Below, in pieces: positions 3,217 to 45,724 of a DNA stretch of 64,000 nucleotides. The notes below the pieces were generated by a model. That model was not told the origin of the DNA and made no database searches. It saw only the letters and a list, made by a program, of their open reading frames with translations. The position numbers and the translations under genes were made by a program. The stretch is from Amphiscolops sp. MND2022. Taxonomy: Eukaryota. Each line of letters starts with the position of its first letter. The stretch's first letter is position 1. Location: assembly GCA_964187785.1 (NCBI GenBank), contig OZ076409.1, positions 69,194,001 to 69,258,000 on the forward strand, given 5' to 3'.

Positions 3217-3334
3217 CACTAGGACCAAAATTTGGAGACACTTGATTTCTCCAGCAAAAATTTCAAATTTAGTAATACTAATTTTTGAAACTTTTGCTTG
3301 AGAAATCAAGCGTCACCAAATTTTGGTCCTGGTG
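3217..3334. mobile_element. Fold-back MITE (near-perfect ~118-bp hairpin)
   Basis: CACTAGGACCAAAATTTGGAGACACTTGATTTCTCCAGCAAAAATTTCAAA pairs with TTTGAAACTTTTGCTTGAGAAATCAAGCGTCACCAAATTTTGGTCCTGGTG; preceded by TA. Confidence 0.6.
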
Positions 3335-4014
3335 GAAATAGATTTTTTTCGATCTTTTGCTTCTGTGACATAATATTTTCAATTTGGGTTAATTGGGTTT
3401 TCAATTAACAATTTTTCTGTGTCGCAGAAGCAGTAATGTCTTAGACTTTGATCGGATTGACAACGCCAGTTTTTGCTTCAAGCTGGAATACAATTTTCAA
3501 GGTGTATCACATCTTGTTGTATTTTCACATCTTATTGAACTTTTCCGGGCAAAATATCGCAAAGGATTGGTCGTATTGAAAAATGTCAACATTAAACTCT
3601 ATTGGCTTGGCATGGCACTGTTCTGTAATTTTTTGTCAGAGACATTTCTTTGAAACAACTGGTGTGAAAATGAACAACGGAAAGTTCTTGAAACCTCGTC
3701 CATACGAAACTTTCAAATTGTAACTTTTGATGAGCTCTCAGATTATGAATTTTTGGCGCTGTTTATTCTTACCGCCGTCGCTTCCTGAACAAGACACCCG
3801 CTAAGCGCCGGAATATTTTCCGCCACACAAAAAAGTGTGAAGAAGGCGAGCTTCGAAACCCAACCATACTTCTAGAAAAAGCAAAAAAAGTATGACAAAG
3901 ATATTGACGGCATTATACCGTCAAAAGTATAATACCGTGAAAGGCAAAATGAAAACAAATTGCAATAGAAACACGGCGCCCGATCAGCACCGGGATACTT
4001 TCCGCTAAAAATGT

Positions 4015-10100: not shown

Positions 10101-10542
10101 AATTCAATGGTTTCAAGAAGTTCGTTCCAGCAAGTCAACCTTTTTGAAATTAACGAGTTAGAGTTTAGCGATGAGAAAACGTTCCTTGTCAGCACATTTC
10201 CTGCTTTCATTGTCTGTGTTTGGTACTGAATAAAGCAAGGTTTCTTAACTGGCGCCGTGCTTTTTTCATGTATGAAACTTAGTTAAATTTCTTCTATTTT
10301 TTTTCTTTCACTGACGAAAGTAGTACATTTGTCTGTTCAGTGCAGATTGAAATAGTGCAAAGCTAACAGACATTTTTTTAGATTGTTCAAAAACCAGTTG
10401 AGACAGCAAAACTCAAGAAGAATGCCTACACAAACAAGGTTCATTTGAAGAGGTTTTTCGAAACACGTTAACTGTACGTACACTTCCTCAAAATATATCT
10501 TGCTTTCTCTTCCAAGATGAGCAAACTTTAAAAATTATCTCG

Positions 10543-10964
10543 TGAGCTGTTAAAAAGTGTGGTGGTAGTTTCTTTAAGATGTTTTATTATAGACATAAGA
10601 AGTCTAAGATTTTAACAGCGAGGTCGTCTTATTTCAAGTCTGTTTAGCTAGCTATTTCTAGGTCTAATCTTTCTGAGATCTCAGTTGAAGTCTAAGTCGA
10701 AAACACGACTATTTGGTGGATTAGAATCTCAATTTCTCCAAGTAGATATATCTTATCAACTAGGATAGATTTAATTAATTTACATCAATAAGAAAGTGAC
10801 AGTAACAAGATACATCTGAGAAGCTTGTTACAGGATATATTAAGTGAAGTTTCTTCTGAGATAATTAGCTTTCAAATGAAATTACATTTACTAATTACTT
10901 TGGTTAGGAGTTCAGAATGTTTCAGATTTATAGAATCTTTGAGGACATGCATCATGGCATCACA
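10543..10964 (-). repeat. 3' LTR of the 17.7-kb element
   Basis: Direct repeat of 27825-28246; 8 substitutions and no indels by manual comparison (~98%). Confidence 0.97.
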
Positions 10965-12211
10965 ATCAACCGGGAATTTAAAAATAAAATTACATATATG
11001 CACTTTGGGTTTGAGGAGTTCTAAAAGTTTTTGTCTCAAACTGTTAAAATTTCTATTTCAGATGTTATGTGCATGGGTTTGTTTCTTATTTGTTATGCAT
11101 GAGTTTTGTTCTGAAATGTACCATACTTAAGGAGTGAAAACAACCTTAGACGAGTTGACGTCTTACGTCATAGACGATTCAATTGGTGCAAAAAGGTTTA
11201 AGTTCTCTCAGTTTCTTTGACTGACAGTTTTCGGTCAAGTTATTTTTGACAACTATTTACTATTCCATGTTTCTTTTTCGTATCAGCCATCGGCTTGTTT
11301 GAAAAAAGTTCATCAACATGAGTTAGTCAGCATTGAAAACTTTTCAAGTTGAAGAATTAAAGCGTGATGTTGTCAATGAGTTGTGAACCAACATTGGCGG
11401 GTATGTGAACCAAAAGTGAAGAAGTTTCGAAAAAGTCAAGGTTCTAGTGAGAGTTCATTTTCAACAAAAGTGAAGAGTAGAGCAGAAGCAAGAAGTTCTG
11501 GAATCAAAAAAAACTTTGACAATTGCAAGTTTCAAACATTGAAAAACGAGAAGTTAAAGTTGTGAAATGTTCAAAAGAAAAATTTTTGAAAATGTTGGGA
11601 ATGCTTTTGGAGAAGTAAAATAAAGTTGTACAAAGCATGTTTTGTAAAGAAAAATTTTTGTCAAAAATCTTAGAAACTTTCTGTACTATACGTAGGACTT
11701 GTGTTCGGTAAAAGATGTGGATTATAGATGTATTGAATAGATGTATTATACACATAACAATGGGGATAAAATTTGGGATAATATTTTGCGGTTACAAGGA
11801 TAATTATAGATGAAATTTTGTGGGGGTTTTGCAACAGAAGGGGTAATTATAGTATGATTTTACAAGATTGAGATTAAATAAGATTATACATTATTAAGAT
11901 TATATTATGAATTAATAATAAATAAGATTATACGTTAAAGTTACAATAAAGTTAGTAAGATATAGTTTGACATTTACGGCAAGTAAATAGTTTGAAATTG
12001 GCAAGTGAATTGTGGCGAGTTCAGTTCATTGCAAGTGAATTGAGTCCAGTTTAGTGGAGCAAAGTGAGAAGACCAGTCAAGTTGAAAGAAGTCAGCATTG
12101 CAGTGACGATTGTGAAGACGAGAGGCAGAAGCAGGTTGTCAAGGTGGAAGAACCCAGTGGCGATGGATGATGTTGACCATCTAGAGGGTGTGCGTGAAGC
12201 AGTGAGAAGTG

Positions 12212-12788
12212 TCAGCGAAGTTCTTTGGGGGAGTGATCAGCAACCATATTTCGGGACATCATCGAAGAAGGATGAAGGAATGAAGACGAGATGTAGTTGA
12301 AGACTAAAGGAAGGTGAGTGAAAGTGTTTGTTAATTGTTGAAACAGAGGATGTTGCGGCGGAGGATGTGCCTGATGCACATGCGGGTCGTAGTACTCAAG
12401 AGTTTGGGTGCACCCAAAATCGTTGAGAATGTTGTTGAAGGCAAGGATTGCTTCTTGTATGGCAGTGTGGAAATATTGATCTTTTGATGTAAATGCGGAA
12501 TTCAAAACGAAAACAGCATTGGATGCAGTTTCGCAGATTGCGACTTTTGGGCCAGCTAAAAGAATTCGAGAGTACTGTTCAAAGGTGATTTTTTTTCTTC
12601 TTGATCTGGGCAACGTTGTATAGAACTTTGAGAAAAGCAATAATAGTTTTGGGTGTGATTTTGTTCTTGTTGATTTCAAGAGAAACTTTATAAGCCATCG
12701 TATGAAAGATGGCGGCTTTGAGGTTGTGTACTTTTGAGAAATCTGAGGTCATAGTAATAATGTCTTCTGTTTCAGCATCGGGAGCCAT
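12212..12788 (-). pseudogene. Accessory ORF B of the large LTR element (orphan, ~190 aa after frameshift repair)
   Basis: ORF 12579-12788 (MAPDAETED...IKKKK) joins ORF 12212-12679 (ITFEQYSRILLAGPK...) across the A-run at ~12589-12596; same strand as pol; no recognisable domain. Confidence 0.55.
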
Positions 12789-13201
12789 GGTGACGGAGTT
12801 CTGAAGATCGTGGAGAGAGAGAAGTGGAAATGTTCTGAAAGAATGCAGATGAAGGAGGAAGAAGAATAGATGTTTCTAAAACAAAAGAAGTTTGAGAAGA
12901 GCAACAATGACAAATTAAAGGTGTACAACAAAGTTTGGTGCTAGAATGTATCATATTATGGTGCTATTATATCTTTTTAATGTGTCTTATAGCGTAATAT
13001 TTACATGTAGTATAGGCAAAGAATCGAAAATGTTTTCATGTACTGAAGGACAAGGAAAATGAGTACTGTAAAAGTTAAAAATCCTGAGAATTCATTCAGA
13101 AAATGTTACCTTGAGGTAGTACCTTTATTGTAGGTCAAAAATGTGTCATATAGTGTACCAGAGGAGAAAAATTAGGAATTTGTATTACCTGTAGGAGAAT
13201 T

Positions 13202-14508
13202 TTAATGAAGATCAGTTGAATTAAAAAGAGTAGTTATGGTTTCCAAAGCAGATTGAATTGCTTGGGATGACTGAGTAATGCGTTGAGAGTCTAGATCGAG
13301 TGTCTGTAAGAGTTTGTGTGTTCTGTCATAGCAGTGTAGTATGTGTGTGAGTGTGATGATGGGCGTTTCAGAAGGTGTTCGTTTATATGGGTCTACGAGA
13401 TTTGTTATATCTCGAAGTGTTCGATTGTTCAAGACAGAAGAAAGTTTTTCAGGCGTGTTTTCTATTGGTGATGAAGGTATTTTATGTTCTGATTTCTGTT
13501 CAGCTTGTACCATAAACGAAGTGGTTTTGGCGGCGATAAATAGAAGTTCGTTTTATGAGTATGTCTGTTTGTAGAGAGCTGTATAATATGTTTTGTCTTT
13601 GTCATCGAGTGGAGAAGAGACAAAATATTTACTAACAGTGAGAGGTTTTACTATCTGTGTAGGAACGTTGCAAGGCAACAAAAATTATTCTTGAGGTACA
13701 ATAAGTGTGCGTGAAGTGTTATTGTATGGCAGTAAACAGTAGTACTGTTTTATAGGATCATAGTTTCTAGATATCCTGTTATACACGAGTGATCAAGAGT
13801 GTAGATGTTTGTCATTGTGAAGGGTGATGTATATTTGTAATTGACGAAAATGTAATTCTTTGGTTTTGTATGCTGTAGAAATTTAGTGTATGTTTGATAA
13901 TGAGTGGCTTTTTGTGATACAGAGAGAAAAAACGGATCAGATTTGTCTGTTTTCAAATCGTATATAGATGGGCGAAGAAAGTTAAATAGTAGAGAAAAGA
14001 TTTTGACTCCATTATCGAGCCAGTATTGGTATGGACCCATGATTTTGGAAGCAATATATGTGAAGAAGTCTTGATTTTTGTCATATAAGCGGAATGTATA
14101 GTCTGTAGGATGCATGTAGAGAGAAGTTAGTTGTGCTTTGAAGGTGAAATCATCATGAAAAAGAAGTGAAATCAAATGATCATCACAATTTGTAGAAAGA
14201 GAAGTGTTTGTAGATATGAAAGGAGGATAGATTGATGACGAAAGAAAGACAGGATCTTTCATTATTTCATATCGTTTTTTTGGAGAAGGTGGCGTTGCGT
14301 GTGTATGATCAATATCATTGAGAGGAGTTGAAACCGTCGATGTATCATGTTCAATTTCTTCTTGTTCCAATTGTTCAAGAGACGTGGTAGGTATTGGTTC
14401 AGAAGTGTCAATATATAGAACAAGAGAATCATTTAGAAGAGGTCTCGTTGTGAGATCTGAGGTGGCTTGTTCAAGTTGATTTTGTAGATCGACTAATGCT
14501 TGTGTCAT
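13202..14508 (-). pseudogene. Accessory ORF A of the large LTR element (orphan, ~435 aa)
   Basis: Likely start MTQALVDLQ (ATG at 14508). One frameshift near 13760 and two in-frame TAA codons link ORF 13750-14598 to ORF 13202-13513 through coding-like sequence (NYDPIKQYYCLLPYNNTSRTLIVPQE*FLLPCNVP...TYS*NELLFIAAKTTSFMVQAEQ). Confidence 0.6.
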
Positions 14509-14818
14509 TGTGTTAAAAACATCAACAATCACAGTGTTATCTTTTCCAAGAGGCCTTAGCACTTTAAAGTATTGGACAATACAAGTACTGTAATACACTA
14601 ACGAGTTGATTTGTCAACTTTTGAAGGAGAGCTTTTGAGAACTGCAAGGATGATGGGAGTGCTGTTTATTTGCGGAACGTGGATTTCTACAAGAGTTTCT
14701 AGAGTTGTAGGAGTAGCAATTTTGAGAAGTTAGTAGGATTGAAAATTTGAAGAGTTGAAAGTGATGAAGAGGAGCGAAGTGTTCTGAAGGAGAGTTGACA
14801 AGCAAACTGAGAGGGAGT

Positions 14819-17061
14819 TCAAGAAGATGGCGGAGAAAAGGGATAATTTACTCGTGAAAAAATTTTAATAGGTGTATCCGTATTAGATGTGACAGAAGTA
14901 ATAATTATGGTGTCATGTTGAGTGGCTAAATTGTCATTCGGATGTGAGTTTGGAGTGGAATAATTAGGAAGTGAAAGATGTTGTTCAGAAGAATAAAGCG
15001 TAGATGGTTGAAAAGTAATTTTCGATTGAGAAAAGTGATGTCTTTTCGGAAATAAATTAAATTTTGGTATCTGGAGTTTATTAGGACGTTTAGCATAGAA
15101 AGATTGGAGGGGAAGTAATACCGGTAGAATGGTTAATTAAATTGGTTGAAGTGTCAGAGAGATGGTCCAGAGATTTGGATTTAAAAAAGAGATTTTTTGG
15201 TTTTTTATTTTGGGTATCATGAAGGTCATTGACCATTTGTGCTGTAAGGATGGTAAAGAAACCATGTGCTATTGAACTAAATAAAGTAATATTATTTTTT
15301 AAATTACATTTAATAGATATTGTTTTGTAAAGTTTGACAATGAGTGTAAGGGTAGCTTGTACAAAAAGAAATGTAGAAAAGTATATACCACATTGTGTGA
15401 GAATATAACAAGGGTATCCAAAAAGTGCAATAAAAGCATCTGAAAACCATGTAGGTGTAAAAAGAGGAGTTAAATTTAAAAGTTTATCATGGAGTCCTAT
15501 ACGTAATGTATTGTAAGGATTACCAGAATCTTGAGGGGAATTTGCATCATAGTTAGGAGTATTATATGAAATGAACGAATAACTAAGAGCTTTACCTAGT
15601 AATTGAAGTGTAGAATCAGAAAGTTTGGAAAATAAAATACGATTCCAAAAATGATAAAGTTCTGCATTGGATTATATACCAGCATCTTGAGCTGTAAAAG
15701 TGTTAGGGCGCATTGTAGTTTTAATTTGTGAAGGTGTAAACCTTAATGGAGTTTTGCGTTTAACAGGTTCAGGTCCAAGAATGTAAAAATCTTGATCGTC
15801 TGAATCAGGATCTAGTTCAATAATATTACGTTGATTATTATCACATGTAATTGGTGTAGCATAGTCATAGATTTGTCTTGTGATAGGATCAACGTACATT
15901 AAAGTGTCTTTAAAGTGTATAGGTATACGGTCAAAGCATCGATCAGCTTTGTATAAAGGGGGGAATATAAATTTGTTATTTGAAGTGTCCAATACTATTT
16001 TGCCAGAAATAAATTCATCAATCATAGAATGAGGATTGGGTTGTCCTGTATGCATATTGAAACCATCAGCGTATGTAACAAAAAGGTCTGAAAATTGTGT
16101 AGAATGAAGTGCGTCTGGTTTACCACAGAAAGTTTGTGCTGTAGGAAAAACTTCAAAACGTGAAAGACTTGGGTTATTAGGATGTTGTGTATGAGGAGCA
16201 TAAACATATGGATGTTCTGAACCTTTAATACCAGAAGTTGTTTTGGGTTTTATTGAGTGTGGAGAATGTACAAAAGAGTCTGTTTCAATCCAATATCTCT
16301 CTTCGATTTTAGTCATACGTCCAATAAAGTCTTGTAGTGTAAATATTAAGCAGTAATCATCATTAAACCAAACAAGAGTAAAAGGAGTTTTCGTTGTGGG
16401 TTTACAAAAACCATCTGCAAAATAGCAGGGTAATGTATGTCCATCGATTATCATGTCATTAGATGTGTCATCATAAGTAGGTTCTACTTCAGAAATTTCT
16501 AATCGCCAACTACCTAAGTTGACTTCGAATTGGTGATGAGCGGGACAGTTATGGTAAAGGTTTTGCGTAGGGTCATTTATCCAGTTTTTATCTGCAGGCA
16601 TAAAGGTAAAGGTACCTGTATACACTTTGTTTAATTGGTATGCAGTGAAAGGAGTTTGATATTGTTCTAATCGTTCTTGAAAGTAATGATCTTCTAAGAG
16701 TGTGAAAGTTTTATTGTAGTGGAGATTGTTCAATATTTTATCATTTGTACCATTAAGGTGATTTATAATGTTTTTACATTCTAATGGATCAAGAGTAACA
16801 GGAAGCGGTAATGTAGTATGATTCCATACAGTTTTATCAACACGACGGTATATTACGGAACCTAGAAAAAATTTTTCTTTCCTCTTTGGCGTAAGCAACA
16901 CATTTAAAAGCTTTAATGCGTTTAGCTTTTGCTCGGACATATACACGGACTTTAACACTTGCGTGTTTAACGTCAGAAGGAGCTTCAGTGCATTGTTTCA
17001 CATTAACTAAGTTAAACTGTCTCAAATTATGTTGTTCTGCACATTCATAATGGGAAACCAT
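14819..17061 (-). pseudogene. env: env-like class III (chuvirus-type) fusion glycoprotein, disrupted
   Basis: N-terminus HYECAEQHNLRQFNLVNVKQC...FKC; LDPLECKNIINHLNG; C-terminal ectodomain RCFDRIPIHFKDTLMYVDPITRQIYDYATPITC. Past a premature TAA (15672-15674) it reads DAGI*SNAELYHFWNRILF, then a hydrophobic TM segment AFIALFGYPCYILTQCGIYFSTFLFVQATLTLIVKLY (~15330-15437) and a long S/T/P tail. Multiple N-x-S/T sequons. Confidence 0.8.
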
Positions 17062-18415
17062 GAGATTTGTGATATTCGGATCATCCGATGGAAGATAGTT
17101 TTCTGTATCAGAAGGTGTTATGGGTATTAATAAAGGTGAAGTTAAATAACTGTAAATAGAGTATCAGAGTTGTTATATAAGAGGTTGTAAAGAGTTCAAA
17201 AAGAGGTAGTATATTTAAGACCGGAGTATGGGTTACAGATTGTGATTTTGCCATATGTAGTAGTGGGTATATTGAGGTCTCGTTCAACTTCAATGTGTAC
17301 TACTTCAAAAGGAGCAGGAGAGGTATTATGTTCTATTTTGGAGACGTGAAATATTGGATGGGGATTTAAACCTTGAAATTTAACTTCAACTTCGAATTTG
17401 AGTTTTAGATTAGGTGTTTGGAGGCGTTTTAGTTCTGTTTCTTTTCTTTTTTGAGATAAGAGATCGTTATTTGTGATAAAGCGTTCTGCAAGAATAGGAA
17501 ATCGAGGATCGTTTTGTGCGTCGTAGATGGTTATACCATCGACTCGAAGTGGATAGTCAACAGAATTTGGGGTTGGAGGTCTAGATTGATCTGCAGTATA
17601 ATATTCGGGTATTCTAATATGTGCAGGAACAGGAGTAGGTATTATAACTTTTGAGAAAAGATTTCCAGAAAGGATTGCAGTCTGAGCGTCTGAAGAAAGT
17701 AGAGAGGCGGTTTCAAAACCAGATGTGAGATACGGAGAAGGTATAAAGTCTGAGGGATTTGTTTCTGAGGACAACAGTTGTGCGTGTTGTCGTACAAGTC
17801 GTAAAATAGAATTGCTAGCTAGAGCGGATAGATTAAGGGTGGAAGTATCTGTACTAAATCTGCGTGAAGGAAGGTCTGGAAGATTATATCTATGTTGTGG
17901 TACAAAAAGAGAGCTTGTAGTGTCCTGTGAAGAAGTATATTCTGATGTATTGTCTAAGAGGTTTGATAGTGATGTAGAAGGTTTTCGAAGAGGTTTTAGT
18001 GGAGGATAGAGTTTAGAAGAAGTATTGCTGAGTTCTGATGGAGATTTCAGTGGAGGTAGTTTTGTATATTCAATGTCAGGAATGTGTACAAGATTAAGTT
18101 GAGGTTGAAGCCTAGCAGTTTTGATAGCTGTAGGATGTTTGTAATTTACGTATTGTTCAACAGTTTCAGGGTTTGGTATGTGTACTAGGGAGTGTTAATA
18201 GGAGTTTGTTGAGTACGAGTGGTAATAGGGATTTCAGTTACAGGTGGTCTATGAAGGAGGGATGAAGATGATGTTTCAGAAACGTATGATCTTGGTCTTT
18301 TTGAAGGACTAGTAGGAGTTACACTACGAGAATTTATATTGTTTGATTTTGAAGATTCAGGAGTGGAGGGAATACTTGGAGCTGATGGAGATATATCAGA
18401 GGAAGAATCCAGGAT
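17062..18415 (-). pseudogene. Ser/Pro/Thr-rich plus globular ORF directly upstream of env (possible long env leader or separate gene)
   Basis: ORF 17196-17774 plus upstream in-strand S/P/T-rich coding-like sequence (DSSSDISPSAPSIPSTPESSK...). One stop and one frameshift near 17196 and 17150 would fuse it to the env frame (...LTSPLLIPITPSDTENYLPSDDPNITNLMVSHYEC). Confidence 0.5.
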
Positions 18416-18524
18416 TATTGAAATGGGTTTTCAACAGGTTATCGTTGAGATAACTTGTTAGTGATTATCTTTCATTCAGCTGCAGTGACTAGTTTTGAAA
18501 GAGCCAGCGGATAGAATGAAGAGG

Positions 18525-21126
18525 TTACAGTTTTGAGGGTGTAATAAAAAGTATATAATCTAATTTGGGTTGTTCTCGTAGTTTATAGGTAGTTTTCGTA
18601 GTTCTGTCAATTAGAGAAGGAAGTGAATCTGTTTGATTATTAGAAGGGTGTCTTGATCTGTCACTAGGGATATTAGTGTGAGGGGTGTTAATTATATCCT
18701 TGTATAAAGAGTTGTCATTGGTTGAGGGAGTTAAAGACTTGTGATTGGATGTTCTAGATAGTGTATTTTGATTGGAAGTACTGAATGATGATGGTGTCAC
18801 AAATGTTTGAGAAGAATCTTCTGTAGTGGATGGTGTCATGAATGTTTGAGAGTCTTCGTCTGATAAGGATTCGTCTGAACTAAAAGGAGAAGAATCACTG
18901 TTTGCATATTTGATAGGTTGTGGAATTTGGAGGTGAGTTGTGTCTGAAAAGCGCGTGAAACTACGCAATTGTGGATATAAAAGTGGTTCTTTTGGATAAT
19001 ATGGAATCAAATGATTTCGGTGAACATGTATTGTAGAGCCATCTTGTGCAAGTAGTTCATATGTTACATCTGATAGTCTATCAATAATTTTGTATGGTCC
19101 AATCCGAAGTGGTTTTAGTTTGTCAGAAAATTGTACGTGTGTGAAATTTCGTTTTAAAACAAAAGTGCCAATAGGAAGTGGTTTACTTTCGTGGTAGGGT
19201 TTTGTAATGTATGCGTGTGAATTGGTTTTTCGTAAAGTGTTTTCATATACTGTAGAATAAATTTGTAACATAGCAGTTTCCACGGCGAGAAACCATTGTG
19301 GAATGGGTTTTGAAAGTGTTCTATAAAAAAATGGGTTGAGATCTGATTTATCATAGTGTGAGAGTTCTGGAAGTTGGGAGCAATAGCGTGAAATACATGT
19401 TTTTAGAGGTGTCTCTATTAAGATTTAAATCGAAAGTAAGGGGTATTCTGGGTCTTGTGTGAAAAACAATTTCATGAGGAGAAATATTGAGTTCTGAAAG
19501 TGGTTGTGAATTATGTGCATAAGCGTACATATGGACTTGGAATGCCCAATCTTTAGGTGTATCGTGTAAGAACATTCGTAAATGTGTACCAAGATTTCTG
19601 TTTTTTACTTCGACAAGGACATTTGTCCAAGGACAGTAGGCTGTTCTGGGAGAATGACGAATTCCCATGAGTGTACAAAGTTGTGCCATTTCTTTGTTTA
19701 CATATTCTGATCCACGATCAGTAACAAGATATATGGGTGGTCCAAATTTAAAAATCCAATGGTGTAGGAGAGTTTTGATTGCAGTTTTTGCGTTGTTTGA
19801 TTTGATGGGCACCGTAACGACAAAGTGACTAAAAGCGTCAATTATGACATGTATATAGGATTTGTTGTGTGAAGGAGGATTGATAGGTCCTTTAGTGTCC
19901 ATTGAAATGCGGTAATTGAAAGATGGAGCATGTTCTGAGAATGATTGTGTAGGAGCAGTTTGGATTTTCATGTTGAAGTGTTTATTGCGTTGACATTCAA
20001 CACAGTCATGTATGAAAATGGAAAGCCATTTTTCGACAAATGGAATGTAGTAATATTGTGCGAATGTCTTATAGGTAATTTTGATACCTGTATGAGAGTG
20101 TCCATGAAGGTTGTTAAAAACAGTTTTGAACAGTCGGAATGGAAGACATATTCGAATAGTAGCGCGTACAAAATCTGGAGTAGAAGATTGGCTTAGAGTT
20201 GTAGGGTGTTTATTATAAAGTCTAATAAGATTTGTGGAAGCATCTATAAAAAATTGTGAAAATCTTTTGTAATAAGCATGTAGAAAAAGAGTGCCAGTGA
20301 TAAGTGGTGTTAGAGTTTCAGGTTTTTCATTTTTAACGATCCACGAATAAACTGTTCTAAGAACCGGGTCTTGGGATTGTTGTTGTTGAAGTGTTGTTAT
20401 GTCTAATGAGTAGTCATCTGGGAGGAAGAAACCTTGAAAATAGTTTTTGTACTTAAAAAATGATGTATCATAGAAAAGTATAATCTGTGGACAATGTGTA
20501 AGAGATGGTAAGTTTGTTTGTACATTTATTGCAGAAAAAGATTTTTGTGAGGTGCTAGGTGTCGATTTGTTGAGAGTAGAGTAGTTTTCTGTTTGTAATG
20601 TTGTGTCATGTAAGAAGGAAGAGTCAGATTTTGGAATTTTTGTATATATATGATCTTCGTCATCACTTGTAATATCAGTATCATTGAATAAAAGAGATTG
20701 TTGATGAAGGGTTTTATTGTTCTTTTTTATAGGTGTTTTGAACTTGGTTTGAAAATGAGTTATAGATTTGAATGAGAAGGATTGTAAAGGTTTGACAACA
20801 ATGTCATTTCCTTTGTCACTGATACGAATAGAGAATTGATCTGTACCATAATCAGCAAGAATTGGGTGAGAGTCATGTTTTTGGTGAGGTAAGATTTCTT
20901 TATGTTTAATTAAGTAATGTACAGGTTTAAGAGTGCCATTTTGTAAAAGTGCAAAATCAAATTGTGGTGGAAGTTGTAATTCAGCTTTTGTAAAAGAGCG
21001 ACTTAACATATCGGCAACAGAGAGGTTTTTTCCAGGAGTATGAATTATTTTGAGTTTTGTAAATTTCGTTAACTGCATTTGAGCTCTGTAAAAACGAGGA
21101 CTAAGGTTGCCTTTTTTGTAAAACAA
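18525..21126 (-). pseudogene. pol: pol 3' part: RNase H end, long spacer, integrase (HHCC, DDE) and GPY/F-type C-terminal domain; frameshifted
   Basis: ADMLSR; HGHSHTG...CVEC zinc finger; SMDTKGP, VTDRGSEY and LVEVKNRNL catalytic motifs; KLKPLRIGPYKII...VHRNHL. Confidence 0.92.
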
Positions 21127-23597
21127 AGTAAAAAAGCTTTGTGATCAGTAAAAATGTGTATTGGATGGGGAGAACCAATGATAAGAAATTCATAGATTTG
21201 GAGAGCATGTACTATACCAAGAAGTTCTCTGTCTAATGTTGAAAGTTTTTGTTCTTGTGGGTTGAGTATACGAGAGTTGTACGATATAACTTTCATTTTC
21301 TTCTGTTCATTCAATTGGAATAAGACAGCGCCTAATCCAATAAGTGAAGCGTCAACTGTAATGAAAAATGGATGTTTTGTATTTGGTATTGTAAGTTCTG
21401 TTTCAGAAGTAAGAGACATTTTAAGTTTTTGAAAAAGACTTTCGTGTTCATCTGTCCATTTCCAAGGAGTGTTCTCATGTAAAAGATCGTAAAAGGGTTT
21501 AAGGTTCTTATGTAGTTTTTCAATAAATTTGGTGTAAAAGTTAAGTGCGCCAATGGAACTCATTAGAGCAACTTTGCCAGTTGGAGAAGGGATTTAATGG
21601 ATAGCTGCAATTTTCGAATGGATTGGTTTAATTGTATTGTAACCAATTTCATGTCCAAGAAATTTGACTTTAAGAAGCATGAAAAAATATTTTTCAGGGG
21701 CTAGTTCAAGATTGTTTTTTGAACTGATAATATGTAGTTTTTCTATGAGTTGGAACATGTGTTCTTTAGAGTCAGATAAAAGTAATATATCGTCAATGTA
21801 GACAAGGGCAAAACCTTGTTCTATAAGAGTTTTCAAGAAGGTAGACATTTGTTTTGTAATGAAGTTTGGAAGTCCTTTAAGACCAAAGAAGCCTCGGATG
21901 AAAGCGAAGAGTTTATCTCCTGAGGAGAAACTGGTAAGTTTAATAGTGTCTTCATCAAGAGGTGTATGTGCATAGGCATACATAAGGTAAATTGCAGATT
22001 TGTACTTTTTGTTTGCGCGTGCTAATTGTAGAGCAAGAGGTTCAATAGGCCAAGATTCATCGGATTGTTCTGTATTTGAGTTAAGATGTCGAGCATCTAA
22101 TACACATTTTATAGTGTCTCCCTTGGGGAATATAATGAGAGGGTTTAAATAAGTTGTGCCATAAACTGGTTTGTCTTGTGGGGAGGAACCAATTTGTTTG
22201 ATGATGTTATATTTTTCTAGTCCTTTGAGAAGTACCTTAAGTTTGTCTCGGTAATGAATAGGGACTTTAGAAGGACGTTGTGTCATAAGTTGAGCATTAG
22301 GTTTAAGTCTAATACGGAAGGGCGTTGAAATTTTTCCAACATCGTTTTTATGAGTTGCATAACATGTTTTGTATTTGAGTAACATATTGCAAAGGGTAAT
22401 GTATTCAGTGTCTGTAAGGTCAGGAAATTGGAAAATAAATTTATTGATAAACTCCAGATTTTGAGAAGTGTATGGTAGAGAAGGAAAAATGCGTTTTTCA
22501 GAATTGTGAGAAGTAGGTTGAACATTGTATAAAGGAGAAGTTTGATGTAGTGTGTTGGATTTTGTCATATAAATTTGATGTAAGGAAAACTGAGGAGGAG
22601 GAGTTGTAGGATCAACGTAATGTACGATATAGTTAGTTTGTGGAACTGGTTCAGTGATTTCAGGATGGTAGGTATGAGTAACATTATGTATTAAGGTGTT
22701 AACATCGTTTACTTGAAAGAATTTGGCTATTTCATTTGTTATTGGAACTTCGATATATCCAATATGTCCTGTAGGTGGTGTTGCAACATGTTTTGAGGTG
22801 TTCTGGATGATAGTTGCACAAATATCTGGTTTGTCATCTGTTAATACTTCAATAAAATTGAAATTTGTACGAAATTTAGTAGCAAAATAGGTATGTGGTA
22901 CTGAAGGGAAGAAGTGATTTTGTGGTGTAGTTGTAAAGTGAAGGTTATGATAATTTTCTATTGGAAAGTGTGCAATTTTAGAAGACTTGGGTTTTAGACG
23001 GATTTGAGTTTTTGAATTAATTCTATAAATGTAAGAGAAATATGGGCAGTCTTTAGATAGAAGTGTTGTGAACTTTGCATAATTTGGGTGTGTTTTTGAT
23101 TGGTATTTGAATTCGAGTGTAAAGTCTTGTATGTTTTTGTTTTGTATATTGTCTTCAAAGAATGGTGTACCAAGGATGTTGTATTTAATATCCGCTACTG
23201 CAAAAGGTACTGAAAAGTAACGGGAATTTTCATCAATAGTGGTGTTCAAAATTATATTGGCAAAATGTAATATAGGAACTTCGGTTTGATTTGCAACGGT
23301 TAATGTTTTTGAATTTCGAGTTGGTCCTACGTCAGAAGTGTGATTTGGTCTGATATCCAAGAGTTTTGTGAGAGTTATGTATGTTGGGTAATTTAATACA
23401 GAAATGGAAGCACCGCTATCTAGAAGGAATGCAATTTCCAATCTAGATGGGTTGTCTCTTTGTGTTATACTTGATGGTGTATGAACATATAGTGTATAAA
23501 ACCAACTTGTAGGTGTTACAGCGTTTGCCATTGCTGTTGGGTGATACATGTGTACTTCAAATTTTATAGGGTCAGATTGGTCTTGTTGTTGTATCAT
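21069..23597 (-). pseudogene. pol: pol 5' part: aspartic protease, reverse transcriptase and RNase H; frameshifted near 21590
   Basis: LLDSGASIS protease motif; ILGTPF; RT motifs VLDARHLN, GFFGLKGLP, YIDDILL, VKFLGH; RNase H TVDASLIGLGAVL, DRELLGIV, FTDHKA. Confidence 0.95.
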
Positions 23598-26500
23598 ATT
23601 AATATTGTTTTTGGAATTGGAGTGTGAACGAGGTCTAGAAAATCTAGAGTCTCTTGGTCTTGAAAGTGGTCTGTACGAATTTGTATGTTTTGTGAATTTG
23701 TTATCTCTGGAATAGGAGCGTGATCTATATCTAGGGCGAGAGTTGTGTCGATACGGAGATCTGTATGAGGATCTGTATGGAGAGCGGTAAGACCGGGAGT
23801 CACGTTTGTACGTATCATATCGTGATCTAGAGTAGTGTGGAGGAGTAGTACTTTTGTCATAACTAAACCTGTCTCTAGATGTAGGTATCGATTTTGTGAT
23901 TAGTCTTTGTTGTAAAAATTGTCTCGTGAGGTACTTCGACTTCGGTATCGATTATCATAGTGTTTTGTTTTATCATTGGAAGGAGAACGAAAGTACTGTA
24001 CAAATGATTTTTGAGGAGATTTTGATCGAGCATATGCATCTCGTTTGTCTTCATCATCTCGTTGTTTTTTGAAACAAGCAGAGATGAAATGATTTGTTCT
24101 ATGACAATATGAAAAATATTTTTATATGCAGGTTTATTTTTGTTATTTGGGTCTTTGGGTTGTGTAAACATAAGTTGTTCTTGAGATGAAGGGTCAAGAG
24201 TTTGAGTGTTCAACTGTTTTGTAATATTGTTATTTTCAAGTGCAAGATCATGTGTTCTGATTTTGTCGTTTGCAATATCTTCAGCGTCAACAAGTTTTAC
24301 TAATGTATGAAAAGGAATTGAAGGTTCTAAAACAGTAGAAGTGTGTTTTACTTGTCTTTTGTTTGCAAAGTCTTTAAGGTGTTTTGGAAGTCCTTTTGTA
24401 AAAATTTCGTTACATTTGAGGTTAATAGTGGATGCATTCTCATTACACCAGCTTTTTTCAACCAGCTGTTGAACTTTGAGTGCAAAATGACGTACTGTTT
24501 CATTAATTTTCTTTGTTAAATTAAGGGCTTCAACTTGAGCATAGTAAGCGTTCTTTTGTGAAGAGAATTGTTTTTTGAAAGCTTGTACAAAGGCGTGCCA
24601 ATCGTGTTTATAGGTGTCATTTAAACGAATGTACCAACTTAGTGCTGTACCTGTTAAAGAGCATTGTATGAAAGCCATGCGACGAGCGTGCCAAAATTTA
24701 CATTCATGTTCTGATGTAGGTTGTAAACCGAAGGAAAATGTAACACGGGCATCAATATGTTGTAGGTATTCTTCAGGTGCATAATTATGATCTAGTCCAT
24801 CAAAAGGTTTAATGGGTTCTGATATAGAAGTAGAAGAGTTAATATATGTTGGGTGTGACATAGTATTGTGAGATATGGTAGATGGTGGTGCTGTATTGTA
24901 TGTAGGATTATTTCAAATATAAGTAAAAGAAGTGGTAGAAGTGTTGTGAAAGTGAGGATTGGTTCTAATTGTTGTTGAAGGAGGATTTTGCATTTGAAAT
25001 TGGGAGGTTTGTAATGTAGGTGTGATTGTGTTAGACATGTGTTGAGGAGGGAAAGTATTGAATGAATTGGGTCTGTTAGTATTTGTCTGAGATTGTTGTG
25101 TATGACTTGGATTTGTACTTGTAAGATTGTACGATAATGGATTAGTTAATATAGTTTGTAATGGAGCTCGAGAAAGATGCCTGGAAGTGGTGTAATTAAA
25201 GGGTGGATTCGAATGAATGGTGTTAATATTTAAAGTAGGTTGTGTAGTTTGTACTGGGTTAGTTTGAGCTGGAGTATAGGTTGAAGTTTGTATTTCAGTA
25301 GGTGATGATGGGGTTGGTGTTTGAAAATGTACTGTATTAGTGTTTTGTGTAATATGTTGTGTATTTGAAGAGCTTTGTTGAGGAAAATTATGGGTGTGAA
25401 TCTGAGTTGAGAATTGGGATGGAATAGAAGGAGGGTCATAATTTCGACGAGGTGATACTTGTGTCTGAGAGGGTTGTGTAATATTAGTATGTGATGAAGA
25501 TAAAACAGAGGTATTGTCTTGATTTGTAGTTAAAGTGTTTGGTTGTTAAATTCGTTTTGTGTGATATTGTGGGTAGGAATTTGTATAAGATTTGAGTCAT
25601 CAGTTATTGTAAAACTTCGTGTATTTTGTACAGTTTCTTCAGAGAATTCTGATGTATTTTGGATTGTAGCTGTCTCAGAAGGATTAGCTTCTTGTATATC
25701 GGAAGCTTGTGGTAATGGTGGATATAGTGGGTGTTCTTGATGAGGTTCTGGATTTTCGAAAAGAGTAGTAAAGTCTTCTTGTTCAGATTGTTCTGAATGT
25801 TGTCTAGTGTATAAAAGTTCAACATTGAATGTTTGTTGTTCAGGAGTTGTTTCAGGAGAAGTATCAGATGTAATAAAAGGTCGATTATCTGGTGTTTCAG
25901 AATGTTCAACTAAAAAGTTTTGGTCTAAGTTTATTTGTTCAAAATGTGTAACATTAAATGAGGTAAGATCTCTGTTTTGTAAATGTTTATTTTCATTTTT
26001 TATGATGTATGGTAAGAGTACTGTGTGTGTTAGTATTTGAGGGAAGTTGATGTAGGCTTGTTGATCTTTTTGTTCCCAGAGTAATTGATAGTTAAATCGG
26101 AAAAACTTTAATAGAAAGTGAGTAAAAATTTTGACTTGAGGGATAGTGTCATCTGTAAGAATAAAATTGTTGAAGAATCTGTATCGAAATTTTTTTTTGT
26201 AAATTATCTTGTTGTAGCCAGTAATGAGGGTTATCATTTCTTTGAATTCTTGTGTCAAGATCAGGGACCTCGAAATATTCAGATCTGTGTTTTAGTTCTT
26301 CTAGGTGAGAAGAACGATAAAGTGGTGTATCTTGGTTTTCATTGAATTCAATATGTTTTTGCATGTATGTGCGGAAAACATCTTGTATAGAGAGTGTAAT
26401 ATTTTGTGGATGGATGGTTCTATAAAACGTTCCAGGACTTATTCCTTTAACTGGAATAAAAATAACTTGAAAAGGGGTTTGTGATGATGTTGTTTCAAGT

Positions 26501-26700
26501 GTTTCATATCGAATGTAATAAAGATAAGAGTCACAATGTTCTCGTGCCATTGGGATAGTATGTACTGTATGGGGTTCTGTTTCAAAGGGAAGTGGATTTG
26601 TGTACTGAAAGAGGATGTTATTTAGGAAAGGTGTTACATCTTGTATAAGAGATCGATTTTGTCTTTTTTCTGTAGTTAATGTAAACGGGGTAGGAAGCAT
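23598..26700 (-). pseudogene. gag: Extended gag (~1000 codons): N-terminal globular domain, T/S/P/Q/N-rich linker, capsid, degenerate zinc knuckle, RS/RY-rich region in frame with protease
   Basis: ORFs 26149-26700, 25530-26258 and 23875-24861 join through frameshifts. Capsid-like PIKPFDG...LTGTALSWY...WHAFVQAFKKQF...ETVRHFA...FTKGLP; knuckle FSYCHRTNHFISAC (~24073-24115); RS-rich 23610-23880 reads into MIQQQD of pol. Confidence 0.85.
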
Positions 26701-27499
26701 TATATGGTGTAAAATTTAGTTAGTATAATAAGATTGCCATAAAGGATAGATGTATTGGAAAAGGAGATATTTTGTATTGAATTATGAATTATATGGTAAG
26801 ATTTGGTCTATGAATACAACTTGTAAGAATTTTGTAAGTGCTGTACTTAGGAAAAGAAGAAATGGGTTTTGTATATATTGTATAAGTGTATAAAAGGTGT
26901 AGTAAATACTAAGCAGTCCAAAAAGAGGTAGTACTATACTTGTTAACATAGAAAAAAAAGGTTGTACCTTAAAATTTTGGTATGAATGAAATTAAAAATT
27001 TGTCAAAAAAAGTGCAAGACCGGCAACTATAGCAACAAAGAACCAAAAGCAGACAATGAGCTTAACTACAATGTCTACTGATGACGACATGTACAATAAA
27101 GTTCTCTTAAGAGTATGTCAAGAAGTTTGTATAAAAATTTTTTATATATATGTGTGAAAAATGAGAGTTATATAAAGAATTAATTGATATATGTTATATA
27201 TTTTTAATTGTTATGTATTTGGATCCGTAAACTAGTTTTGAAAGAGATTTGTATGGTGTGTGTATGATAGAAGAGAGAGAAAGAAGTATTAGAATAGGGT
27301 TATGTGTAAAATATATGTTATATAGGTGTGCCAACTTAAAAGTTGATCCAAACGGCTAGAACCAAATCATTTTTACTAGCAGGAATCGCTGGATAGCACT
27401 GTAAATGGGCCAACACGTATCGCACGTCTGCGGTTGGAACGGAAGAAGGTAAGAAAGCCAACACGAATTCACTCAGAGGTGGTTGGAACGAAAAATTTT

Positions 27500-27631
27500 A
27501 CTGACAGAAAATACGCTAAGAAACGTAGTCCGAACCAAGAAATATGACTGACAGGAATTACGTTGAGGAACGCAGTCAGAACCAAGAATTGTAACTGACA
27601 GGAATTACGTGGAAGGACGTAGTCAGAACCA
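27500..27631. repeat. Three 47-bp tandem repeats in the 5' leader of the large LTR element
   Basis: Units start at 27500, 27547 and 27594; consensus ACTGACAGGAATTACGTnGAnGAACGTAGTCAGAACCAAGAA. Confidence 0.85.
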
Positions 27632-27804
27632 TAGCAACACAAATCAATTTCTAGTAGAAATCGGTTGCACGTTGAAGTTAATAACGGTATGCGATATTGA
27701 GAGGTGGAGAAACTGTGTGTCGAACAAAGAGATATTTGATGAGAAAGTCGAGAAAAGGTGTACAAAAATTGTAGAGTTGTGAAATGAGTGGGAGAGAAAG
27801 AAGA

Positions 27805-27822
27805 AGTTTCTTGGTCGCACCA
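27805..27822 (-). promoter_or_regulatory. Primer binding site of the large LTR element
   Basis: Minus strand reads LTR end CA, then AT, then TGGTGCGACCAAGAAAC; TGG complements the tRNA CCA end. The cognate tRNA was not identified. Confidence 0.75.
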
Positions 27823-27824
27823 AT

Positions 27825-28246
27825 TGAGCTGTTAAAAAGTGTGGTTGTAGTTTCTTTAAGATGTTTTATTATAGACATAAGAAGTCTAAGATTTTAACAG
27901 CGAGGTCGTCTTATTTCAAGTCTGTTTAGCTAGCTATTTCTACGTCTAATCTTTCTGAGATCTCAGTTGAAGTCTATGCCGAAAACACGACTATTTGGTG
28001 GATTAGAATCTCAATTTCTCCAAGTAGATATATCTTATCAACTAGGGTAGATTTAATTCATTTACATCAATAAGAAAGTGACAGTAACAGGATACATCTG
28101 AGAAGCTTGTTACAGGATATATTAAGTGAAGTTTCTTCTGAGATAATTAGCTTTCAAATGAAATTACATTTACTAATTACTTTGGTTAGGAGTTCAGAGT
28201 GTTTCAGATTTATAGAATCTTTGAGGACATGCATCATGGCATCACA
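27825..28246 (-). repeat. 5' LTR of the 17.7-kb element
   Basis: Direct repeat of 10543-10964; adjacent to the PBS and followed by TSD CTCG. Confidence 0.97.
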
Positions 28247-29499
28247 CTCGAAAAACTATTCAATATCCTACTTTCTGAAAAGCTAGAAAAGCGTTTCATT
28301 TTGGAAATAGGGTTTCTGATTTTCCTATATAGTAGCAAACTACTTCCCTCAACTAATGCTATTAGTAACTCGAATTAAGGATCCCTTCTGCTCTGCTTAA
28401 GTTTTCCGAATTAAGATTAGACCCCTAATTGATTTTTTACCTCCGCGACAGATCTTAATCTGATTCGCAGCATAGCCTCAGCGTTACTTAACGCTTGGCT
28501 TCTGAATTATTGCGACTTCGTTCAGCTTGAGTGGTAATGGGTAAGAATTTGGGCTCCAAAAACAACTTAAAATCAATTAGCTAATGAGAATCCTACTCAA
28601 TCCTAGATTGAAAACTGTTGAAGATGCAAGAGCTGTTAAGGTTTCTCTTTGACGGGTATATTCTCGGACAGTCCATTAGCAGCGACCTTCACCGGTATTT
28701 TGATTTTATTTTGCGCTAAAACCTTTTCGAAACAAAAGCCATTGCATATAACAACTACTTGATTCTCTTGAAAGAATTTTAATTTGTTGCAGAATTTTCA
28801 AATAGAACACGAAGGCCGCTCAACACTGAACGTTGATAGTGATACAGATTCATAACAAACTAACCAGTTTTCAATTGTTGGTCAACTTTCATCCGTAATG
28901 TTGCACTTTTTGCGATGGGGAATTTATTAAAATTTTGCAACAGATGCTAAAAATAATTATTTTCACTAACTGTGAAATTTCCCCAAAATTTTTTGGTGAG
29001 ATCTATTTTACAGCTAGCTCAAATGAAAAACAGAAACAATTCGGCAGAAAAACTATTCAGGTGAGGAAACTTCTGCACAGCAAAACTTCCATGAAACAAG
29101 TCGGGAACGTCATAAGTCCCGCTTAAAGCTCAAAAAGAGCCAAAACAACTCAAATCGTCAACGAATCTCTTCTGAAAAAATTTCAATTTCAAAGTATCAA
29201 AAAAACCAAACACGGGACACTCATGGTGTGTAAAAGCAATATTAGGAAAAACGTAAACGCATCAAAATAGTGATTAATTGTCAACTCAAGGCAAAAAGCA
29301 GAGTTATTATACCAAACGTACGTAGGACCATTGTTAGGAACCAAATTAAGACCGGTGATTTTTTTCGTGTATGCTTTGGGTTACTTTGTTCATCATCTTT
29401 TTGATGAACTCAACATCTACCTTCTTGACACAATGTTTAATTCTTTGGACTAAATCATCTCTTGAAGTTGCTTAAAGGTCGTTTTCGTATACCAATTGT

Positions 29500-41899: not shown

Positions 41900-42436
41900 C
41901 GAAATTAGAACTGCTTCCTAATGAAACCTGCATAACTTCGCAGCTCGGAACTGCCGCCAAATTTAGCATGCATCTTATCGAATCTGTGAAATTTTAATGT
42001 GTGGACGTTTCCTCGAGAGTTTGATAAAATCATGAAAACTTAGCTTGGTAACCAACAAAAACATGTAGAAAGTCCAAGCAGTATCAACCAGGGCATTGAG
42101 ATGCTCAGATACAGTCGTTCCCGGCGCAATATGGAATTGATGCGATGAAATTCAAATTTTTGCATTTCATATATCAAACCGTCATTCATATACAAATTTG
42201 TTGCACTCTGAATATAAAAGTTGCACTCGAAATATCAAGTTGCCATTCAAATAGAACACAGTTGAGTTGGATGCCGTACGTTGCATTTCAAATATGAATA
42301 TTATCAATATAATATAAAAGTGTTGCAACCAAATAAAAAAACTCTTCAGAAACATCCGTTTCCGTGTTTCCGTTTTAAAATTTCCGTTTCAACATTTTGC
42401 TTTGCTTTACAGTTTAACTATTCAACTAGCGTGAAC
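41900..42436 (+). repeat. 537-bp direct duplication, left copy (abuts the Gypsy LTR)
   Basis: Matches 48258-48794 with about 4 substitutions; constant offset of 6358 bp. Confidence 0.93.
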
Positions 42437-45719: not shown

Positions 45720-45724
45720 TTGTT

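Follow-up and report, generated by a model that had tools for sequence, protein, structure and literature searches.

Ty3/Gypsy elements make a full-length RNA that yields one Gag-Pol polyprotein; the RNA is reverse-transcribed and the DNA is integrated. Env-bearing Gypsy elements are usually pictured as three-gene elements. The HSV/gB-type errantiviruses (Chary and Hayashi, 2026; PMC13524379) resemble the element described here in having a Ty3/Gypsy pol, a class III env placed 3' of pol, LTRs and a tRNA primer site, and in being multicopy in invertebrates. Their traits include a cysteine-bridge configuration and a 'mini' domain in the pol bridge; the accessible text of that paper gives them gag, pol and env only, with no mention of 'accessory', and the element here adds three ORFs. 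A sequence-only reading of this locus had set it against errantiviruses carrying only a baculovirus-F-type env, a contrast that is out of date, since class III env has been published across animals including insects (PMC13524379). Burro (GYPSM1) of planarians is also a giant Gypsy-like element with thousands of copies, a mononegavirus-related env and accessory ORFs, as described in the available sections of PMC6431247.

The window, the whole 64,000-nucleotide stretch that was analysed, holds a 17.7 kb Ty3/Gypsy element on the minus strand, on which all stranded features given below lie. The element is bounded by 422 bp LTRs with TG...CA ends (5' LTR, 27825–28246; 3' LTR, 10543–10964) that differ at eight of 422 positions, by four transitions and four transversions, and is flanked by the target duplication CTCG (28247–28250, unstranded, with a second copy at 10539–10542). 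The primer-binding site (27812–27822), 2 nt inside from the LTR, is complementary over 11 nt to the 3' end of the host tRNA-Val(TAC); the match reaches 13 nt in sister subfamilies. Three 47 bp tandem repeats (27493–27633) within the 1.1 kb leader contain a weak donor-like C/GTAATT, a motif present in all four leaders examined. A polypurine tract is a typical feature of LTR elements and does not separate families. No purine-rich tract was found before the 3' LTR, the purine fraction of the last 15 nt being 0.40–0.47 in three of three sequences, yet the 3' junction sequence at the expected position (10965–10981) is conserved across copies. A 4 bp duplication accompanies four of five older LTR pairs, two of three young copies and three of four solo-like LTRs; the remaining older pair and the remaining young copy have no matching target duplication. 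The LTR ends with a 4–6 bp target duplication and the tRNA primer-binding site are both as expected of Ty3/Gypsy.

The 8.2 kb gag-pol (18525–26700) is broken in the window copy. Two of three sister copies carry it as a single frame of about 2,900 codons; the third has breaks in the N-terminal part of gag. From N- to C-terminus the frame comprises an extension of about 600 residues, capsid, a CCHC knuckle, protease, RT (YIDD), RNase H, a 300-residue bridge and integrase (D,D35E; GPY; SH3-like), with Pfam matches to Retrotrans_gag, RVT_1, RT_RNaseH, Integrase_H2C2, rve and SH3_Tf2-1. The protease is called from its DSG motif only (Pfam E value 0.17). The gag extension and the spacer between protease and RT have no Pfam match above the cut-off, and the bridge has neither a Pfam match nor a credible PDB sequence match. 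The order protease, RT, RNase H, integrase is the Ty3/Gypsy order. GPY occurs in the translation of 18528–19424 and, with the CX2CX4HX4C knuckle, agrees with the Ty3/Gypsy features listed in the accessible part of PMC12440569. The nearest solved relative of the RT–RNase H region is Ty3, again as expected of a Ty3/Gypsy element, with bit scores of 135 for Ty3, 101 for the next entry (8r0s), 71 for foamy virus and 25 for HIV. Searches of Pfam and of PDB sequences did not find the degenerate tether plus second RNase H of retroviruses, lokiretroviruses and Odin; the RNase H directly after RT retains its acidic motifs, and pol may contain a remote second RNase H fold. Membership of the Belpaoviridae (Anakin, Tas) was rejected: the Pfam matches are of Ty3/Gypsy type, none belongs to the families that we take to be Pao-specific, and the best solved relative is Ty3. 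Troyka, with a 3 bp duplication, CG...CG ends, no env and no GPY, was rejected too, as the element does not show this combination. At the level of sequence, the element is confirmed as Ty3/Gypsy (Metaviridae-like).

The env gene (14819–17254) is likewise broken in the window copy, where its ATG sits within the end of ORF X. In a sister copy it encodes 898 residues with an N-terminal hydrophobic stretch, a transmembrane stretch at about 710–740 and a tail of about 150 residues; the signal-like and transmembrane stretches, assigned from hydropathy only, are retained in all lineages. Env scores 76 and 96 bits against PF24664 (cut-off 27), all 37 matches listed by Foldseek against the PDB are gB, rhabdovirus G, gp64 or thogotovirus Gp, and the best match in a viral library is a xinmovirus glycoprotein (E value 4e-9). 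The predicted model has low overall quality (mean pLDDT 43, TM-scores 0.11–0.16; pLDDT 31 when built without an alignment), and the fold support is confined to model residues 68–240 or so, with a best Z of 6.9 and an rmsd of 3.0 over 72 residues, the tool's caution line being 8. A PDB sequence search gave no credible match and an Atlas search no usable one. The env database matches listed are all unnamed ENA proteins; one distant match (P0262) is at most 32–39% identical to anything in the host genome, and relatives of the element therefore probably exist in other genomes. From the Pfam and fold searches we assign env to class III, and the element combines the Ty3/Gypsy pol and the class III env with signal and transmembrane stretches that make up the working definition of a gB-type errantivirus. 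The architecture proposed in the sequence-only reading has thus held up: the LTR pair with eight differences in 422 bp, CTCG on both flanks and the primer-binding site; a gag-pol of about 8.2 kb followed by some 6 kb of additional same-strand coding sequence (6.1 kb at 18412–12338); and a class III env, recovered by PF24664 and the fold searches.

ORF X (17196–18412), Met-free and AUG-depleted, is the oddest feature of the element and had been overlooked in that reading. It encodes about 410 residues from a putative CUG start at 18412–18410, with an N-terminal part rich in Ser, Thr and Pro and a conserved C-terminal domain of about 130 residues. Methionine is absent from five of five uninterrupted frames, and the best 120 of 425 database matches, all unnamed ENA proteins, contain 27 Met in 38,914 residues, compared with 15–17 per 1,000 in env and ORF A. 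Counted in all frames, AUG occurs 2, 2, 3, 1 and 0 times in 1,170–1,338 nt. Codon shuffles predict 6.2–7.8 out-of-frame AUGs (P = 0.025, 0.027, 0.028, 0.002 and 0.0003). These five sequences do not count as independent, since they share ancestry and include two pairs (A/A2 and C/D); one of 16 control regions, an integrase tail, is likewise AUG-poor (P = 0.02). The CTG has A at -3 and G at +4, a strong context, in all five sequences, and is kept across lineages of just 33–35% identity; CTG makes up only 1–3% of Leu codons. Among genomic matches the start codon is CTG in 928 cases and a synonymous codon in 10 (TTG not counted). Protein similarity begins at this codon, and the 31 codons that can be aligned 5' of it between C and D give a dN/dS of 0.33, a small sample subject to local-alignment bias. 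No hairpin was detected 3' of the CUG (z from -1.0 to +1.7), and in some lineages short upstream ORFs occupy the stretch that leads from the first acceptor-like site to the CUG. We infer that ORF X starts at CUG rather than AUG. In A and B the env AUG precedes the ORF X stop by about 55 nt, whereas it follows that stop by 1 nt in C and by about 50 nt in D. ORF X itself has no credible PDB sequence match and no Pfam match above the cut-off.

Two further frames follow env and are broken in the window copy: ORF A (13202–14508), of about 440–495 residues, and ORF B (12338–12788), of 150–159 residues in sister copies. ORF A is stop-free in 75 of 95 and 88 of 90 scored places and has no hydrophobic membrane stretch; it returned no credible PDB sequence match, no usable Atlas match and nothing above the Pfam cut-off, and the best 120 of its 274 database matches are all unnamed ENA proteins. 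ORF B has no Pfam match above the cut-off, and in distant lineages its slot holds an unrelated protein of about 300 residues. A candidate fourth ORF near 11500–11800 was dropped, its frames and starts varying between copies. Putative splice sites recur in eight compared sequences and in subfamilies A and B. An acceptor-like AG/TCAC (18485–18496) just 3' of the pol stop and an acceptor-like CGTTAG/TGT (14595–14606) 5' of ORF A are each present in eight of the eight, a donor-like CAG/GTAA (13182–13194) just 3' of the ORF A stop in five, and an acceptor-like TTTTAG/AAAC (12872–12886) 5' of ORF B in six. In the leader, a search for a shared splice donor gave no convincing candidate.

The host is an animal that uses the invertebrate mitochondrial code. 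Genome-wide there are 1,823 exact 5' LTR junctions and 2,049 exact 3' junctions, with none in the controls, and on one contig (C1) 29 of 53 5' junctions pair at 16.5–17.6 kb. The family occupies at least 1.7% or so of the genome, by a rough estimate, and its young copies number in the hundreds. The segment 11000–15000 is matched over at least 3,970 of 4,001 nt, at 86–92%, in at least 19 other places, a count from 39 scored out of 3,993 candidates. The layout is LTR, gag-pol, ORF X, env, ORF A, ORF B, LTR; its gene order is identical in three sister copies (LTR differences 1/423, 1/419 and 0/417) and in the 3' parts of two distant copies, and is kept in all 13 other fetched copies bar one with a foreign insertion. 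Exact peptide-pattern scans of viral and metagenome contigs, which have low sensitivity, found no relatives.

All five genes are under purifying selection. Between A and A2, dN/dS is 0.04 for ORF X, 0.10 for env, 0.06 for ORF A and 0.09 for ORF B; between C and D the values are 0.09, 0.08, 0.07 and 0.20; between A and B they are 0.16, 0.11 and 0.16, with dS saturated for ORF B. The range for gag-pol is 0.09–0.10, and the env ectodomain (0.06) equals integrase in constraint. By these comparisons, ORF X, ORF A and ORF B are new protein families conserved under pol-like constraint. Relative to uninterrupted sister frames the window copy carries about 12 frame changes and six in-frame stops, spread over all five genes, part of which may be sequencing errors, and its env is without some 0.28 kb near 15960 that seven of eight fetched copies carry. 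The earlier proposal of a recently active lineage therefore stands for the family, in which sister LTRs show no or one difference, and fails for the window copy, which is decayed in every gene. The window contains one defunct member of a recently active lineage of Ty3/Gypsy (Metaviridae-like) elements of about 18 kb that reach high copy number; together with the mechanism proposed below, we consider this account quite probable.

We propose that the full-length RNA would be primed by tRNA-Val and the DNA integrated with a 4 bp duplication, as known for the family. ORF X and env would probably share one subgenomic mRNA, on which some ribosomes would initiate at the ORF X CUG, while the remainder would scan across 1.2–1.3 kb of AUG-depleted RNA before starting at the env AUG. 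Such leaky scanning through ORF X to env is likely and would set a fixed X:Env ratio, as in rice tungro bacilliform virus. We lean towards ORF A and ORF B each being expressed from its own mRNA, spliced at the conserved acceptor-like sites. X, which would be co-expressed with Env, might act as an adaptor in particle assembly or budding, a guess in which we place little confidence; a regulatory or anti-silencing role for ORF A and ORF B is equally speculative.

Several other explanations have to be weighed against this scheme. The broken ORFs of the window copy, and the lack of Pfam or PDB matches for X, A and B, could suggest that non-functional DNA was captured once, or inserted as a nested element, to give the 11–18.4 kb region. 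The region is nevertheless present in other copies, in an order shared by 13 of them (one interrupted), and dN/dS is 0.04–0.20, far below 1, in all three extra ORFs. Copies lacking the region and neutral dN/dS were the two sequence results that the sequence-only reading had named as refuting it, and neither was obtained. Constraint of pol-like strength argues against a one-off capture, which the sequence comparisons already refute and to which we give practically no weight. For translation, Env might be made by termination–reinitiation, with ORF X read to its stop and ribosomes restarting at the env AUG, which is near that stop in every lineage; the mechanism is known in caliciviruses, according to the available part of PMC3542737. 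It neither requires nor explains why AUG has been lost from all three frames of ORF X, however, and a weak CUG start would limit Env output; we consider it unlikely. We judge it very unlikely that splicing or trans-splicing supplies ORF X, as a second exon, with an AUG from upstream, and that env has a separate mRNA made by an internal promoter or a different splice, as in Oikopleura Tor3b/4b. In favour of this, several acceptor-like motifs are conserved and Tor elements have internal env promoters (PMC4402516, in the sections available), but in none of A, B, C and D does the open frame contain an AG ahead of its conserved part, and the fixed rare CTG, the lack of Met and the lack of out-of-frame AUG would be left unexplained.

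Leaky scanning from a CUG, which we prefer, is compatible with a further alternative that rivals only the infectivity step: an ordinary intracellular retrotransposon in which env and the extra ORFs aid transposition, through trafficking or evasion of silencing, and no particles are exported. A copy number in the thousands suits efficient germline copying, and the low-sensitivity exact-pattern scans found no relative in viral or metagenome contigs; set against this, constraint on the env ectodomain matches that on integrase (dN/dS 0.06), and no lineage has lost the signal-like or the transmembrane stretch of env. We regard the intracellular reading as possible, with distinctly less than even confidence, and judge the chances evenly balanced that Env passes particles between host cells, for example from soma to germline. 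Taken as a whole, the idea that a lineage of 'complex' Metaviridae, starting from Gypsy elements, arrived by convergence at the layout of complex retroviruses is put forward tentatively, at somewhat below even confidence: an enveloped, still-spreading endogenous virus with three accessory proteins, separate subgenomic mRNAs, a CUG-started ORF X past which ribosomes leak to reach a class III env, and a plus strand primed with no polypurine tract.

How far, then, does the element differ from what has been described? The non-insect prefilter of PMC13524379, as given in its accessible text, allows a pol–env gap of at most 1,000 nt and a region of at most 10,000 nt; here the gap is 1.27 kb and contains ORF X, gag to env spans 11.9 kb and two ORFs follow. 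The size filters of this one broad survey would tend to skip layouts of this kind, and large elements may therefore be uncounted. The primer sequence of our element has no match among the 1,512 elements tabulated in the part of PMC13524379 available to us. The role of the gB-type Env is left open in that text, and the present host is a natural place to ask about it. Burro exceeds 30 kb and has its env and extra domains in frame within a 4,900-residue polyprotein between gag and pol (PMC6431247, sections available), unlike the separate env and three extra ORFs 3' of pol seen here. In the accessible account of the Oikopleura Tor elements (PMC4402516) there are three ORFs only, with no CUG-started ORF before env. 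Anakin has a similar chuvirus-like class III env but belongs to BEL/Pao, according to the available portions of PMC12440569 and PMC13524379, and bdelloid LTR elements also capture extra ORFs, with one ORF3 each of a recognisable enzyme or env type in the part of PMC5408684 available.

Foamy-like fish endogenous retroviruses and complex retroviruses similarly reach up to 17 kb through accessory ORFs (PMC6431247, in the same sections), and env of SIV and HIV is carried on a bicistronic mRNA (PMC5902531, in the text available); retroviruses, however, have a retroviral pol with a tether domain, and the RT–RNase H of our element scores far higher against Ty3. Rice tungro bacilliform virus, of the Caulimoviridae, shares the non-AUG first ORF and leaky scanning through about 900 AUG-free nt, as far as the accessible text of PMC5902531 and PMC3542737 describes it, but this plant pararetrovirus has no LTRs, no integrase and no envelope, and the likeness is one of analogy, not membership. 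From the CUG and the depletion of AUG follows a sharp and cheap prediction on env translation, which, if true, would place a pararetrovirus-like translation strategy in an animal LTR element. Gypsy elements with a gB-type env are already known; what is new here is the size, the three conserved ORFs of no assigned function, and ORF X.

The 18-kb env-bearing Gypsy elements form a real and recently active lineage, and the window copy is a dead member of it. The LTR pair and flanking CTCG bear out the position that the sequence-only reading had assigned to the element, on the minus strand: the LTRs (10543–10964 and 27825–28246, minus) are 422 bp each, run TG...CA and differ by eight mismatches, and direct sequence comparison shows the CTCG target-site duplication on both flanks. 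On the same strand, Pfam places gag, RT, RNase H, integrase and an SH3-like tail at 26700–18525 and a weak Monjiviricetes fusion match at 15675–16997. The primer site corresponds to the 3' end of a host tRNA-Val(TAC) gene, with 11 nt matched in the window copy and 13 nt in the sister copies; five tRNA-Val genes cluster within 2.1 kb elsewhere in the genome (L046). No polypurine tract was found before the 3' LTR in the window or sister copies. Despite this, the 3' junction (window 10965–10981) is conserved at 2,049 genomic places, and in the window and sister copies it mirrors a 2-nt offset at the primer site. All five genes of the window copy are damaged, by about 12 frame changes and six stops in total, and its env has a gap of ~0.28 kb relative to seven of eight fetched copies. 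This load is roughly what would be expected from the 1.9% LTR divergence, and part of it may be sequencing error.

The window also contains an ordinary 5.8-kb Gypsy element (42437–48255, minus), whose 228-bp LTRs differ by six mismatches and which has gag-pol and no env; the 537-bp sequence on its left (41900–42436) recurs at 99% on its right (48258–48794). An exon-like frame at 60956–61531 (plus strand) with a weak kinesin motor match is probably a host gene. Short inverted repeats and dispersed repeat families at 3204–3347, 56447–56581 and 63263–63453 are probably small non-autonomous transposons.

With the LTR as query, the genome returned 3,168 candidate matches, 40 of which were scored; exact-pattern counts gave 1,823 LTR–primer junctions and the 2,049 3' junctions, with none for reversed controls. 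Of the 53 5' junctions on contig C1, 29 are paired with a 3' junction 16.5–17.6 kb away, two with a nearer and ten with a more distant one, and 12 are unpaired; scaled up from this contig, the family makes up ~1.7% of the genome. Window 11000–15000 has 19 further matches in the genome, each spanning at least 3,970 nt at 86–92% identity. The 3' parts of eight of these were fetched and all are broken, one being interrupted by a Polinton-like insertion. Such an insertion, matching endonuclease VII and protein-primed polymerase B, occupies the ~3 kb just ahead of the env match in stretch L035. In the window subfamily, five LTR pairs differ at 8–16 sites, and four have matching 4-bp duplications. 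The LTR pairs L044/L043 and L005/L019, one of them with identical LTRs, lack a matching target duplication, possibly because copies recombined or were joined in the assembly. The start motif of ORF X, the frame between pol and env, occurs three times at 2.8-kb spacing on C1 (G000:C1:103959198–103964848), which suggests that an internal piece is tandemly arrayed there.

ORF A, the first frame after env, returned 8,531 candidate places and was stop-free in 75 of 95 scored; with ORF A of a second subfamily as query the figure was 88 of 90. From these match lists we sampled two sister copies of subfamily A (A and A2), which is 85% identical to the window copy, and one of subfamily B. The LTR pairs of these copies show 1/423, 1/419 and 0/417 differences, and the copies are ~18.1 and 17.8 kb long. 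Gag-pol is a single frame, broken near its start in the B copy; ORF X has 417–420 codons, env ~900 aa, ORF A 447–473 aa and ORF B 150–159 aa. The distant lineages C and D, represented by 3' parts in which LTRs were not located, have the same gene order, with identities to A of 33–35% (ORF X), 53% (env) and 36–42% (ORF A). Their ORF B slot holds an unrelated protein of ~300 aa (L047:7593–8507, L048:7761–8651); the slot seems exchangeable. This protein has a Ser/Thr-rich start, a helical middle and a Cys/His cluster.

Selection was measured as pairwise Nei–Gojobori dN/dS between copies. Between the two A copies the values are 0.04 for ORF X, 0.10 for env, 0.06 for ORF A and 0.09 for ORF B; between A and B they are 0.16, 0.11 and 0.16, with dS saturated in ORF B; and between C and D they are 0.09, 0.08 and 0.07, with 0.20 for the ORF B-slot protein. 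Gag-pol gives 0.09–0.10. In the env ectodomain (0.06) and at the end of ORF X (0.03), constraint is on a par with that on RT-RH-IN. Neutral ORFs, or copies lacking the extra region, had been envisaged as evidence against the proposed layout; the ORF values (0.04–0.20) are far from neutral, and A, B, C and D all keep the order ORF X–env–ORF A. Low dN/dS and the gene order kept in the sister copies and in C and D uphold the proposal of accessory genes: ORF X, ORF A and ORF B are functional genes of the element. Gag has ~600 aa ahead of its capsid domain (L040:2348–4150; window about 26700–24900), the first 270 of which are constrained (dN/dS 0.08) and had no match in a Pfam search. A constrained spacer of 230 aa lies between protease and RT.

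The RT-RH region scored best against Ty3 (135 bits), with much lower scores for foamy virus (71) and HIV (25), and the element agrees with Ty3/Gypsy in domain order, catalytic motifs, CCHC knuckle and GPY motif. Pfam and PDB sequence searches of the 300-aa bridge found no second RNase H. Env matched PF24664 at 76 and 96 bits (cut-off 27). Its AlphaFold model, built from 76 sequences and confident only over about residues 68–240, has 37 listed PDB matches, all of them class III fusogens. Xinmo-, chu- and rhabdovirus glycoproteins were matched in a viral library, and a wide structure search placed rabies G, Chandipura G and HSV gB at the top, at Z scores of 6.1–6.9 that lie under the tool's caution line. 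The PF24664 score and fold matches support the class III env that had been proposed. The host mitochondrial COX1 is read by the invertebrate code (AGR Ser, AAA Lys, ATA Met, TGA Trp).

ORF X, the 'leader/ORF' of the sequence-only reading, is without Met in all five uninterrupted frames, and the best 120 of its 425 database matches contain 27 internal Met in 38,914 residues; env and ORF A have 15–17 Met per 1,000 residues. In five sequences of 1,170–1,338 nt, AUG occurs 2, 2, 3, 1 and 0 times in all frames; codon shuffling predicts 6.2–7.8 out-of-frame AUGs (P = 0.025, 0.027, 0.028, 0.002 and 0.0003). Other ORFs of A and B have 14–26 AUGs per kb, and 15 of 16 control regions, 12 of the 16 being equally Ser/Thr/Pro-rich, are not depleted (the remaining one, P = 0.02). 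Protein similarity begins at a Leu-Asp pair. In A, A2, B, C and D, and in six of eight window-subfamily sequences (two being off pattern), this Leu is encoded by CTG, flanked by A at -3 and G at +4. Among Leu codons CTG accounts for 1–3%, and of 74 further Leu sites conserved in all four lineages not one is CTG throughout. Within the same flanks, the genome has CTG at 928 places and a synonymous codon at 10 (TTG left out; copies not independent).

A Met-free, AUG-poor ORF X with a fixed CTG context points to translation that would begin at CUG, with ribosomes leaky-scanning through ORF X to env; this putative route is the simplest reading of these features. CUG is described as the most efficient non-AUG codon (PMC3542737). 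Rice tungro bacilliform virus offers a precedent for both steps: initiation at AUU runs at ~10%, and scanning covers 900 nt devoid of AUG (PMC5902531). Against this reading, no hairpin was found downstream of the CUG, and in some lineages the CUG is preceded by short upstream ORFs. Env could instead be made by reinitiation after ORF X, its AUG lying near enough to the ORF X stop; we consider this unlikely. At the RNA level, conserved acceptor-like motifs follow the pol stop (8/8 window-subfamily sequences) and precede ORF A (8/8) and ORF B (6/8), a donor-like site follows the ORF A stop (5/8), and all four are present in A and B; in C and D, TTTCAG lies two bases ahead of the ORF B-slot ATG. 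These motifs may serve subgenomic spliced RNAs. No good splice donor was found in the leader, and an internal promoter, as reported for Tor3b/4b (PMC4402516), or trans-splicing may therefore supply the subgenomic RNAs.

The env type is already known, since Chary and Hayashi describe Ty3/Gypsy elements with a gB-type env from across the animal kingdom (PMC13524379). Unlike the present element, theirs are described without accessory ORFs in the available portion of the article; the rest of the supplementary tables could include long elements, and the prefilters outlined there would tend to leave out the present layout. A literature search of titles and abstract openings, largely outside subscription journals, found no publication with this layout, nor any LTR retrotransposon with a CUG-started ORF ahead of env; a Repbase or Dfam entry for the family is possible. 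Burro (PMC6431247) is larger and differently built. Beside these elements, ours form an env-bearing 18-kb Gypsy lineage with three selected accessory genes and, probably, a non-AUG route to env by leaky scanning.
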